A stretch of 14,057 nt of DNA from a virus, in UHGV virus genome UHGV-0369625; one strand, written 5' to 3'. Made by a program: the position numbers and the translations under genes. The notes beneath the pieces are model-generated. The model was not told the origin of the DNA, made no database searches, and saw only the letters and a program-made list of their open reading frames with translations. Positions 4,127-8,578 of this stretch are shown one piece after another. The first letter of the stretch is position 1; each line of letters starts with the position of its first letter.

Positions 4127-4406
4127 GAGATTGTGGTGCTTTTTGTGGGAGTCATCCACTTACGCACTTTGTTTTGCCATGCCAGCAGTTAGCTTCTGCT
4201 GTAAAACTATTCATGCAGCAAACCTGCACTTCACCACAATGGTTAGCATACTTTTCCTGATTAAGGTTTTGCCAAATATGCTGGCCATTGTTTCATGTAT
4301 TGGACCTCCTTATTTTTATTAAAGAGATCCAATATTCACTACTCTGTCCGTATCTCTACTCAGGCATCAGCCTTCTTCGTTATCGTATACAGACGAGCGA
4401 TGAATT

Positions 4407-4622
4407 TTAATCAGTAATGATGACATTTGCTGCTGCAGGACCTTTAGCACCACTCTCTATAGAGAAGGTAACCTTTTGACCTTCAAATAAGGTTCGATAA
4501 TTATCATTCTGAATCGCAGAAAAATGCACAAACACATCTTTACTACCATCAACAGGAGAAATAAAGCCGAAACCTTTATCAGCGTTAAACCATTTTACTA
4601 AACCAGTCATTTTATTTGACAT
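4407..4622 (-). CDS. cspB: Cold-shock protein CspB (CspA family), 71 aa
   Basis: [23 protein letters not shown]...; ATG 4620-4622 with AAGGAA SD; stop TAA 4407-4409. Confidence 0.95.
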
Positions 4623-4800
4623 TCTACATTCCTTAACTTGAGCCTTTCGGCATAAATGGTTTGCATAACAGAAACGACTTCGTACTTAATTGGAGAGACT
4701 CAAAGAAGGAATAAGTGAATAACACCTGAAATGAGAACTGCTTTAGTAAACTACTTCGTATATCGTCTGTTCTTCAAACCGACGCAATCATTAACGCATA
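4623..4800 (-). promoter_or_regulatory. cspB long 5' UTR with cold-box-like element (boundaries approximate)
   Basis: Minus-strand sequence near 4760-4795 (...GGTTTGAAGAACAGACG...) resembles the cspA cold box, and the block is shared with the cspI leader. Confidence 0.45.
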
Positions 4801-4922: not shown

Positions 4923-5135
4923 TTGTCCCGTAAAATGACAGGAATTGTCAAAACCTTTGACGGCAAAAGCGGCAAGGGTCTTATCACCCCATCCGATGGT
5001 CGTATCGATGTCCAGCTTCATGTTTCAGCGCTCAATCTCCGCGATGCAGAAGAAATTACCACCGGATTACGCGTGGAATTTTGCCGGATAAATGGTCTGC
5101 GTGGCCCTTCAGCTGCCAATGTTTACCTTTCATGA
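4923..5135 (+). CDS. cspF: CspA-family cold-shock-like protein CspF, 70 aa, TTG start
   Basis: Frame begins at TTG 4923 with TAAGGAA SD 7 nt upstream; the next ATG (4935) is too far from the SD. Transcribed divergently from cspB. Confidence 0.85.
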
Positions 5136-5189
5136 GCTATATTAAAGCTTTAATTTCAGGCCCCATCGGATCACACATGGAGAGTTTTT

Positions 5190-5279
5190 ATGAATAACCC
5201 CGTCTGTCTTGATGACTGGATGATTGGCTTTAAAAGCTTATGCTGTACTTTGGCCGTAATAGCTCTGCTAATAATATAA
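5190..5279 (+). CDS. Candidate small hydrophobic protein, 29 aa ([29 protein letters not shown])
   Basis: ATG 5190 preceded by GGAGAG SD at 6 nt; hydrophobic C-terminal half; lies between cspF and the bidirectional terminator. Hypothetical, no homology evidence. Confidence 0.3.
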
Positions 5280-5427
5280 TAAGCAGACTCATTGTGTTTA
5301 GGGACATTGTACTGGAAGAAAACATTTTAAACATCAGGCAAATAACCAAGTCACCAGCTAAATAATAAGTTAACAGACATGAGTCCCGGGATGAGATTCA
5401 ACATTACCATTGCCCCATTTAAAGCAC

Positions 5428-5460
5428 AAAACCCGCTCATCAGCGGGTTTTCTACTTTTT
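5428..5460. terminator. Bidirectional intrinsic terminator (stem AAACCCGCT, loop CATC, stem AGCGGGTTT); candidate tR' downstream of Q
   Basis: Ten-bp GC-rich stem flanked by an A-run upstream and a T-run downstream; about 100 nt downstream of the Q stop on the minus strand. Confidence 0.7.
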
Positions 5461-5556
5461 CTTAACGTCGGGTATACAAAGCCCATCGTTGAAAAAATTT
5501 TATCCATATTTTTTGAAAAATGCAAACATCATGTCGCCATCTTCAGCAAAAATCAT

Positions 5557-6309
5557 TTATCTCGTCACCTTCCTCAATTGCGCTTCCGCGTATGCTTCTT
5601 CCTGCCAGCACTTTGTTACCAGTTTACCAATGACGTCCGCATACCCCTTATACCACTGATAATCGGTCAGGTCTGGTACCAGCTTCTGGACATGACGTCG
5701 TGCCAGCGTGGTCGGTAAACGACTAAACCGGTTTCCATTACAACGCCCACAAATCTTATATACCGGTACGCCATGAAACCGGGTTCTTTTTTCATCCAGA
5801 ACAATCCCTTTACCCTTACACCCTCTGCACGCTGTGCTGACTTCGCCCTTACCATGGCAATGCTGACATAGTTCCTTCACCCATTCTTCCTTGATTACAG
5901 ATTCCCCGCGTCTGTAGTGTTTCACCACTTCGCGCAATACATTATAAAATCCCGTACCTGAACAATGCTCACAGCGAGCCTTACTTGCCGCAGACCTGGA
6001 GTAATCAGCAAAGGCAAAACTCACGAGGTAAGGAATAATCTGTAACCGGATTTCTTCACTCAATTTGTTCAATGTCGGGTTATCCAGTGCCATCGCGTAA
6101 TTTAGCAGGCCTTCAATCGCAAACTGAGGGTCCTGAACACCAACTTTTGCCAGAAATAAGGCCAACCCAAGTGGTGCTTTCGACTGCACCATCCCCTGCG
6201 CTGCCATTACATCCGTAATTGTTAAACAACCGGTGCCTGTCGCTGGAGCGTCATCGCTCAATTTTGGAGATTTTGGGGAGTAATATTTTGGTAAGGCTTC
6301 AAGGTTCAT
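5557..6309 (-). CDS. quuQ: Late-gene antiterminator Q (phage 82/21-type Q family), 250 aa
   Basis: ATG 6307-6309 with GGAG SD; the track start at 6339 is TTG. Cys/His-rich zinc-binding region (CEHCSGTG...CQHCHGKG...CRGCKGKG...CGRCNG). Matches Qin QuuQ as recalled. Confidence 0.9.
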   Translation of the reverse strand: MNLEALPKYYSPKSPKLSDDAPATGTGCLTITDVMAAQGMVQSKAPLGLALFLAKVGVQDPQFAIEGLLNYAMALDNPTLNKLSEEIRLQIIPYLVSFAFADYSRSAASKARCEHCSGTGFYNVLREVVKHYRRGESVIKEEWVKELCQHCHGKGEVSTACRGCKGKGIVLDEKRTRFHGVPVYKICGRCNGNRFSRLPTTLARRHVQKLVPDLTDYQWYKGYADVIGKLVTKCWQEEAYAEAQLRKVTR

Positions 6310-7373: not shown

Positions 7374-7652
7374 TTACCTCCAGATCCGTTGCTGGAAAGT
7401 GCGGGACGCACGTGGTGGGCGTTCGGAGTAAGGCAATCTGACTGAGATTATCCAGTGACGGTAGTCGAGGCTAAGGGCTTTCTTAACCTCGTATCCGCGC
7501 CTGCGGTAACACTGAATTATCCATTCAGCCTGCTCTTCAGTGCATGGAGGGTGTTGGAACCATTCAGACTTGAATGCGTGAGAATACCGCTCGTGCGTGC
7601 AGACAAGAACGGGCGAATTATCAGAATTGTAATATTTTACGTTGCGTGCCAT
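7374..7652 (-). CDS. Hypothetical protein, 92 aa; stop abuts the ydfU start
   Basis: ATG 7650-7652 with GGAGAA SD; stop TAA 7374-7376 is 1 nt from the ydfU GTG. No family recognised. Confidence 0.65.
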   Translation of the reverse strand: MARNVKYYNSDNSPVLVCTHERYSHAFKSEWFQHPPCTEEQAEWIIQCYRRRGYEVKKALSLDYRHWIISVRLPYSERPPRASRTFQQRIWR

Positions 7653-7718
7653 CGGTTTTCTCCGGTGGCACGGTGTTACTCAGCGGGAGTTCAGCCCCGC
7701 GCAAGATTGTAGATGAGT

Positions 7719-7970
7719 TTATTCTTCTGCAAAAGCTGAAAAGCCTGCTTTTATTCCGATCTCTTTCAGTGCCTGTAATGAAGTGACAAACTCACCTTCG
7801 CGCAAGATAAATCCGTCCGTGACTCGAGCATCCACAAAATTAATTAACGCAGCCCCATTCTTTCGCAAACACAGAATGCGGTAATGACTAACAATGTTTC
7901 CATTTTCAACGCACACAGCATAGAGGCCATCTTCACAAAAAATTTTACGCAGTTCTTCGATGTTCATCAT
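7719..7970 (-). CDS. rem: Rem-like small prophage protein, 83 aa
   Basis: ATG 7968-7970 (tandem MM) with GGAAGGA SD; sequence matches Qin Rem as recalled. Confidence 0.75.
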   Translation of the reverse strand: MMNIEELRKIFCEDGLYAVCVENGNIVSHYRILCLRKNGAALINFVDARVTDGFILREGEFVTSLQALKEIGIKAGFSAFAEE

Positions 7971-8085
7971 CAGAATCCTTCCGGATAATTAACTCTCCCC
8001 TTTAAGGGACCATCCCTCTTATCCCTGCGCGCTACTTAAGTATTTTTGATTCTATTCCGGCACCGTCCAGAACTTCAAACGCGTT

Positions 8086-8118
8086 GAAAATAAAAACAAA
8101 AACCCGCCGAAGCGGGTT
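8086..8118 (-). terminator. Rho-independent terminator downstream of hok (stem AACCCGC, loop CGAA, stem GCGGGTT), T-run on the minus strand
   Basis: Plus strand reads aataaaaacaaaaaAACCCGCcgaaGCGGGTTaag; about 70 nt downstream of the hok stop. Confidence 0.7.
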
Positions 8119-8186
8119 AAGTGCGGGTGCGTTGAGGATGCCTGTCACATCAGAGGTGGCGAGGGATTTCTCCCTCGCCGGGTCTC

Positions 8187-8342
8187 TTACTCCTCAGGTT
8201 CGTAAGCTGTGAAGACAGCGACCTCCGTCTGGCCGGTTCGGATTCGTACCTCGCAGAGGTCTTTCCTCGTTACCAGTGCCGTCACAATGACGGTTAAACA
8301 GATGACGATCAGGGCGATTAACATCGCCTTTTGCTGCTTCAT
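8187..8342 (-). CDS. hokD: Hok/Gef-family type I toxin, 51 aa (MKQQKAMLIALIVICLTVIVTALVTRKDLCEVRIRTGQTEVAVFTAYEPEE)
   Basis: ATG 8340-8342 with AGGAGAA SD. Single TM helix plus the conserved Hok C-terminus; matches HokD/RelF as recalled. The track ORF extends 19 codons upstream to ATG 8399. No relB/relE upstream. Confidence 0.85.
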   Translation of the reverse strand: MKQQKAMLIALIVICLTVIVTALVTRKDLCEVRIRTGQTEVAVFTAYEPEE

Positions 8343-8578
8343 AGCCTGCTTCTCCTTGCCTTTCGGCACGTAAGAGGCTAACCTAGATTTGCCGTTCATA
8401 GATTGAGCCTCAGATTAATGTTAAGCGTCTTGCAGGACGCGTAATGTTAACTGGGGCTTTTCTCTATCTGCCTTTGGTGTTCATGCCTGAGACAGATAGC
8501 CTCAAGCACCCGCAGCCATTCTACTTAACTCCCGTTACCTCGCCAATATAAAATCAATCAGAAAGGTGATCCATAAAA

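Follow-up and report, generated by a model that had tools for sequence, protein, structure and literature searches.

An open reading frame of 29 codons in the gap between a cold-shock gene and a phage antiterminator gene raises the question of whether so small a frame is a gene at all and, if it is, what its product could do. The frame lies in a stretch of prophage DNA of 14,057 nucleotides (UHGV virus genome UHGV-0369625), which is referred to here as the window and supplies the coordinates used below. The initial annotation, made from the letters of the sequence, had described an unannotated hydrophobic frame with a strong Shine-Dalgarno sequence in an apparently noncoding gap of 420 bp that ends at a bidirectional terminator, and it had placed the product in the size and composition class of small membrane proteins and type I toxins.

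Identity and translation of the reading frame

The physical description of the frame was accurate. Direct reading places the Shine-Dalgarno sequence GGAGAG at 5179..5184 on the plus strand, separated by five T residues from the ATG at 5190, and translation from this ATG gives 29 codons plus a stop (5190..5279, plus strand) with a hydrophobic C-terminal half. The stop codon, TAA at 5277-5279, is directly followed by a second TAA. The gap measures 421 bp, from the cspF stop (5135) to the minus-strand ydfT stop (5557), and the bidirectional hairpin is present within it at 5428-5451. A Shine-Dalgarno-led ATG frame of this size is by itself common by chance and not unusual: with criteria picked after the frame had been seen, ATG frames of 25 to 60 amino acids with GGAG 4 to 9 nt upstream number 2 in the window versus a mean of 2.1 in first-order Markov shuffles, and when a 14-residue stretch with a mean Kyte-Doolittle value of at least 2.8 is also required, only this frame and hokD remain in the 14-kb window, whereas the shuffles contain 0.003 such frames on average.

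The description of the frame as unannotated was wrong. The window differs from Escherichia coli MG1655 at 1 base across the 661 bp surrounding the frame, and the same 661 bp is found at 80% coverage or more in 1411 E. coli records, where the annotation beneath the matches reads cspF, hypothetical protein, ydfT. In NC_000913.3 the frame is annotated as ynfS, b4750 (YP_009518791.1), within the cryptic prophage Qin, and PGAP calls it as a hypothetical protein in every full-length E. coli match inspected. The peptide encoded in the window is identical to K-12 b4750 at 28 of 29 residues, the sole difference being L11M, and this allele is present on 559 contigs in the protein collection. It matches a Pfam family of its own, PF23697 "YnfS," over residues 1 to 29 of 29, scoring 79.4 bits where the gathering cut-off is 27 (E = 1.5e-22), and an exact-sequence look-up in protein clusters leads to the UniProt entry YNFS_ECOLI. 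Its position is also that of b4750, with cspF on one side and ydfT on the other, and the window is a Qin-type prophage. The gene is therefore already known, with RefSeq, UniProt and Pfam entries, and it is not a discovery of this analysis, having been found in 2018 and its translation independently confirmed since.

VanOrsdel 2018 (PMC6001520) listed ynfS as "cspF / ydfT," 1642122-1642211, 29 amino acids, and detected YnfS by immunoblotting among 36 chromosomally SPA-tagged small proteins in LB cultures; the authors also noted that a tetracycline ribosome-profiling screen had scored the gene as positive without identifying it (PMC6001520). Weaver 2019 (bioRxiv 10.1101/511675) reported strong start peaks at ynfS with both Onc112 and retapamulin and a YnfS level comparable to that of most newly found small proteins. 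Expressed from its native locus, tagged YnfS was present in both exponential-phase and stationary-phase cells (PMC6001520; bioRxiv 10.1101/511675). These published peaks at the ynfS start (bioRxiv 10.1101/511675) answer the proposed check by ribosome profiling or initiation-site mapping, and together with the published tagging and a frame and Shine-Dalgarno sequence that are intact in relatives, they confirm a genuine protein-coding small open reading frame. In K-12, ynfS is translated from its native locus, and we regard it as practically certain that the frame in the window is ynfS and is translated. Our literature search found no functional study of YnfS, and in the literature found, no membrane localization, binding partner or phenotype is reported for it. 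A 2024 survey still placed ynfS among the uncharacterized Qin genes, and a tiling-array study listed it among genes downregulated by fluoride.

Three other frames in the gap were considered as genes and rejected: a plus-strand frame at 5240..5365 and a minus-strand frame at 5230..5349 are both cut by a 7-nt indel, and a minus-strand frame at 5351..5440 is cut by a 1-nt indel. Compared with strain FDAARGOS_1058, the window is 100% identical around ynfS and is 76 bp longer between a 92-amino-acid frame and hokD (window 7652-8187), and it therefore derives from another strain. The hokD/sok locus itself occupies approximately 8187-8511 on the minus strand, where hokD (51 amino acids, ATG at 8342) overlaps mok and sok is matched by Rfam at 110 bits; next to hokD in the closest genome record, an AbiH-family gene stands in place of the K-12 relBE.

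The probable cspF-ynfS unit and the convergent late promoter

The upstream neighbor of ynfS is cspF (4923..5135, plus strand), a cold-shock-domain gene according to the MG1655 and FDAARGOS_1058 annotations and to its matches to NCBIfam CspF (1.5e-44) and the Pfam CSD family. No terminator was found between cspF and ynfS in the terminator scan. Beyond ynfS, a 3' untranslated stretch of the cspF-ynfS transcript (5280..5427, plus strand), which is the most variable part of the locus, leads to the bidirectional intrinsic terminator (5428..5451, both strands) detected by terminator scan, inverted repeat and Term-seq. Of the 10 pairs in its hairpin, 5 are G-C. T-runs flank it on both sides, the minus-strand one reading GTGCTTT. 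Cotranscription of cspF and ynfS is probable, and we infer it rather than read it from a mapped end because the curated Term-seq table lists no plus-strand 3' end at the terminator, its sole entry in the 16423xx range being 1642356(-). At the DNA level, cspF is homologous to the chromosomal cspH as far as its stop codon and no further, and ynfS therefore lies outside the older csp duplication. As a separate observation on the cold-shock genes of the window, the cspA thermoregulator RNA is matched over its full length twice on the minus strand, at 4391-4783 (158.8 bits) and 1496-1881 (112.8 bits), and the two matches take in the 5' leader and the coding sequence of both cspB and cspI; unlike these two genes, cspF has no cspA-type leader.

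On the opposite strand, the same hairpin belongs to a lambda-type late control region. The gene convergent with ynfS, ydfT (quuQ; 5557..6309, minus strand), encodes an antiterminator of the lambda Q family by annotation and by Pfam PF03589 (3.5e-54), and its product is 33% identical to lambda Q (E = 3e-40). The promoter scan found a PR'-like late promoter composed of TTTGCA, 18 nt and TAAAAT (5526 to 5497, minus strand), which together with the TCAACGATGGG that follows it (5492 to 5482) occupies 5482..5526. In an alignment with lambda 44500-44810, TCAACGATGGG matches the first part of the lambda PR' transcript exactly. In lambda, this initial sequence carries a sigma-70-dependent pause element. 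The hairpin (5451..5428) comes approximately 40 nt after it. The region thus has a Q-family gene upstream, a promoter, a -10-like pause element and an intrinsic terminator, and the hairpin that the initial annotation had described as a Q-proximal terminator is tR' of the prophage, with a lambda-like PR' upstream of it.

In the Term-seq table of Adams et al. 2021 (PMC7815308), which spans three growth conditions, the minus-strand 3' end 1642356(-) of MG1655, window position 5424, appears three times. The combination of a PR'-like promoter, a terminator about 40 nt further on and a 3' end at 5424 therefore gives a short PR'-tR' RNA, and the Qin-type prophage makes such an RNA, of approximately 65 to 70 nt and of the lambda 6S/StxS kind. 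A 73-nt minus-strand RNA from this region folds with a z score of -6. A name for the short RNA of Qin-type prophages was not found.

Two further sites in this area are listed in the same study. The first is a minus-strand 3' end, listed once, at MG1655 1642188 or window position 5256 (PMC7815308). It lies inside ynfS, in the complement of codon 23, and 8 nt past a weak A/T-rich hairpin (TCTGCT...AGCAGA, 5264..5287) that was detected as an inverted repeat and in the centroid fold and that extends across the ynfS stop. A minus-strand RNA with this 3' end is most simply explained by read-through from PR'. The second is a bicyclomycin-sensitive plus-strand termination region at MG1655 1643015, window position 6083, antisense to ydfT (Adams et al., PMC7815308); this Rho-dependent site suggests that some plus-strand transcription passes the bidirectional terminator.

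The layout of the locus places the cspF-ynfS unit against late transcription; PR' therefore cannot drive it, and a promoter of its own is needed. The SMRT-Cappable-seq supplements contain no entry for the ynfS region. The sequenced phages with ynfS, namely, 2H10, HannyBb, PhiR42_1 and PhiR63_1, share the order Q, ynfS, cspF, cspB, holin. What this context adds to the published gene is that ynfS accompanies cspF as cargo not only in cryptic prophages but also in sequenced lambdoid phages and that it faces a lambda-like late promoter, of which a short RNA and a read-through RNA can be seen in published 3'-end maps.

Range, variation and selection

Relatives of ynfS were sought with a back-translated motif, DDW-x-IGFK. 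Among GTDB species representatives the scan gave 3 true matches, all in Escherichia or Shigella, and approximately 15 further matches in unrelated taxa, with a chance estimate of approximately 13; in IMG/VR it gave at least 120 prophage contigs. An exhaustive phmmer search of 1.84 billion representatives, with the YnfS query extended by one upstream codon, returned 5 matches. Four of these derive from the E. coli sequence, by a codon deletion in one case, a frameshift in another and insertions that create fusions in the other two, and the fifth is a Citrobacter amalonaticus protein of 29 amino acids (WP_435301382.1) with 62% identity, the only distant homolog that this search found. Across positions 5 to 15 it is identical to YnfS at 10 of 11 residues, keeping the N-terminal VCLDDWLxGFK, and there are two arginines in its C-terminal half, which is not hydrophobic. 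Degenerate patterns for Citrobacter-type ynfS DNA, run on viral and metagenome contigs, retrieved either nothing or only the E. coli I12T allele. The family is thus nearly confined to prophages of Escherichia and Shigella, with near-identical copies named from Salmonella.

The gene is also frequently missing. A 258-bp deletion (window 5126-5383) is present in approximately 224 of 1631 matching E. coli records (~14%); it takes the last cspF codons, the whole of ynfS and most of the 3' untranslated stretch and turns cspF into a pseudogene. The deletion leaves the terminator and PR' intact. Separately, two IMG/VR contigs with the S16I allele have an insertion after the position corresponding to 5310, 31 nt past the ynfS stop. 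This breakpoint was considered as a module boundary and rejected, the insertion being recognized as what we take to be IS3.

For the comparison of close relatives, 117 loci were reduced to 40 haplotypes of a 650-bp segment. In all 40 the ynfS frame is free of indels and GGAGAG is invariant, and the start codon is lost in one (ATG to ATA); a clade that is approximately 9% divergent across 5136-5460 keeps the frame as well. The conservation of the frame across related prophages, which had been proposed as a check, was thereby borne out. The 3' untranslated stretch, in contrast, has a 7-nt indel and a 1-nt indel among the same haplotypes. Variable columns make up 11% of ynfS, 15% of cspF, 15% of the 54-nt spacer and 23 to 27% of the 3' untranslated stretch, and the difference between ynfS (10 of 90 sites) and the latter (36 of 148) is significant by Fisher's test (p = 0.017).

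The proposed check on selection gave a divided answer, as the frame is kept but a signal of selection on the protein is absent. The ynfS variants consist of 9 nonsynonymous changes (M1I, N2D, N3K, P4S, L11M, S16I, A22T, V23L and I29M) and 1 synonymous change, versus 10 and 18 in cspF of the same haplotypes (Fisher p = 0.008), these tallies being small numbers and counting variants rather than independent events. The 9:1 ratio is indistinguishable from the neutral expectation (binomial p = 0.36). Because it differs so from the 10:18 of cspF, constraint on YnfS at the protein level appears to be weak, and the substitution pattern gives no sign of strong protein-level selection.

It is possible that ynfS is a young frame that ribosomes translate but that is essentially unselected, its Shine-Dalgarno sequence and start codon having arisen toward the 3' end of the cspF transcript. 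The neutral ratio of changes, the very narrow taxonomic range and the commonness of the deletion variant all fit this reading, as does the end of the cspH homology at the cspF stop, which leaves the ynfS segment outside the old csp unit. The tagging study, moreover, found no significant link between the detection of small proteins and their conservation or predicted transmembrane domains (PMC6001520). However, ynfS varies less than the adjacent 3' untranslated stretch, with 0 indels versus 2, its Shine-Dalgarno sequence does not vary at all, the common substitutions in its hydrophobic half are conservative, and the 62%-identical Citrobacter homolog has precisely the same length and retains the N-terminal motif. 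We consider an unselected frame a serious alternative, to which we would give rather less than an even chance.

The peptide and the readings of its function

The locus as a whole is best explained as the known small-protein gene ynfS of Qin-type lambdoid E. coli prophages, and we hold this explanation with high confidence. In lambdoid phages, a cargo gene between Q/PR'/tR' and the lysis genes is called a moron, an example being stx of Stx phages. We propose that ynfS is the distal cistron of such a cargo transcript, cspF-ynfS, which would lie between PR'/tR' and the lysis genes in opposition to late transcription and would end at the shared bidirectional terminator. The product would be one continuous helix, with VCLDDWLxGFK at its N terminus as the best-conserved part and with a C-terminal half, S16-I29, that may be hydrophobic enough to serve as an inner-membrane tail anchor. 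If active at all, YnfS would probably bind a larger membrane protein, as other small membrane proteins do.

The initial annotation had suggested a single membrane helix in the hydrophobic half. AlphaFold2, run on the single sequence, predicts one helix over residues 4 to 28 with a mean pLDDT of 85. The peptide of 29 residues has a GRAVY of 1.41, and its uninterrupted hydrophobic run is the 14-residue S16-I29, with K15 upstream, for which the mean Kyte-Doolittle value is 2.86. The additive transfer free energy of residues 10 or 11 to 29 (19 to 20 residues, including K15) comes to -0.3 to -1.0 kcal/mol, on a scale whose values are reportedly those of Hessa 2005, and a hand calculation on the same scale gives approximately +6 kcal/mol for the Citrobacter homolog. 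Since the helix prediction is accompanied by a transfer energy that is only slightly favorable, a tail-anchored helix is plausible but marginal for YnfS, and the Citrobacter sequence is predicted to have none. The suggestion agrees with the predicted helix and the hydrophobic half of the E. coli peptide but does not extend to the distant homolog, whose C-terminal half is not hydrophobic. Substitutions common in the hydrophobic half of YnfS are conservative (A/T, V/L and I/M). The conserved part of YnfS is the N-terminal VCLDDWLxGFK rather than the hydrophobic tail.

The most likely account of YnfS is therefore a translated helical peptide of 29 residues, possibly membrane anchored, that prophages carry as cargo along with cspF and on which selection is weak. 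As to whether YnfS functions as a membrane-associated peptide or its frame is translated but subject to little or no selection, we judge the two about equally probable.

The convergent arrangement suggests a further hypothesis, in which read-through from PR' would pair with the cspF-ynfS mRNA and silence it, so that YnfS synthesis would be coupled inversely to late transcription. We consider this very improbable. If it were true, YnfS would be either a lysogeny-only factor that is turned off on induction or part of a toxin-antitoxin-like module assembled from a by-product of the late promoter.

The type I toxin suggested by the initial annotation, that is, a membrane-damaging hydrophobic peptide repressed by an antisense RNA, found no positive support. 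The size and hydrophobic C-terminal half of YnfS would suit a toxin, a minus-strand RNA does cover ynfS, as seen in the Term-seq 3' end at 5256, and the promoter scan reports a minus-strand promoter-like site at 5300..5271. The search for an antisense RNA that had been proposed thus succeeded as far as the RNA itself is concerned but not for a promoter dedicated to it. The site at 5300..5271 is destroyed in divergent alleles that keep the frame (TGTTTA to TATCTA and ATA to ATG), and the spacing of a second candidate found by direct reading on the minus strand (-10 TAAAAT at plus-strand 5324-5329 and -35 GTGACT at 5349-5354) differs by 7 nt in one of the clades; the RNA is more simply accounted for by read-through from PR'. 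Family searches were equally unproductive: with E values up to 10, Pfam gave only PF23697, NCBIfam gave nothing, no Hok, Ldr, Ibs, TisB or other toxin family was matched, and a PHROGs search with the peptide gave nothing significant. At gathering scores, Rfam reported in the whole window only the two cspA-type leaders and sok, all of them elsewhere; around ynfS it had no antitoxin RNA near threshold, the sub-threshold matches (isrK, OrzO-P and amino-acid leaders) aligning solely to the terminator hairpin. The 325-nt plus-strand RNA folds no better than its shuffles (z = -1.2), an ordinary structure rather than the strong one of a type I toxin mRNA. YnfS is made natively in both growth phases and has strong start peaks, the opposite of typical toxin repression, and the window already has a true type I pair in hokD/sok. 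No overexpression experiment with growth arrest or membrane damage is reported in the papers found that mention ynfS. With these results the toxin idea is unsupported, and we regard it as very unlikely.

Equally unlikely is that the act of translating ynfS matters in itself, with ribosomes shielding the 3' portion of the cspF mRNA against Rho, RNases or antisense pairing: conservation of the nucleotides without a signature of protein-level selection, the two minus-strand 3' ends that document convergent PR' transcription and the bicyclomycin-sensitive site at 6083, where Rho acts on plus-strand transcripts, are in keeping with it, but it has no direct evidence and no downstream gene to regulate, it leaves the retention of VCLDDWLxGFK in Citrobacter unexplained, and the ynfS stop lies 148 nt before the terminator stem, so that ribosomes cannot directly influence the hairpin.

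Comparison with known systems

The cspF-ynfS unit, our preferred reading of the locus as prophage cargo, resembles stx in being inserted after Q and PR'/tR' and before the holin gene, but it differs from stx in being oriented against late transcription. Lambda 6S, which is 194 nt long, and StxS are short PR'-tR' transcripts of lysogens. The minus-strand RNA of the Qin-type prophage is like both in having a Q-family antiterminator, a PR'-like promoter with TCAACGATGGG, an immediate terminator and a 3' end observed in vivo. At a predicted 65 to 70 nt, it is shorter than lambda 6S, whereas StxS is processed to a 74-nt form, and no similarity to the lambda sequence was seen past the first 11 nt.

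The type I pairs hok/sok, ldr/rdl, ibs/sib and tisB/istR share with ynfS a small hydrophobic peptide and an overlapping RNA from the opposite strand. They differ from it in that ynfS matches none of their families, has no conserved promoter dedicated to an antisense RNA and yields a protein that is detectable without induction. Another comparison is with AcrZ and MgtS, small bacterial membrane proteins that modulate larger membrane proteins. Although the hydrophobic stretch of YnfS is short (14 residues), ends at the C terminus and is absent from the Citrobacter homolog, unlike in this class, YnfS is similar to its members in being shorter than 50 amino acids, in having one predicted helix with a hydrophobic segment and its own Shine-Dalgarno sequence, and in having been discovered through the same tagging and ribosome-profiling approaches.
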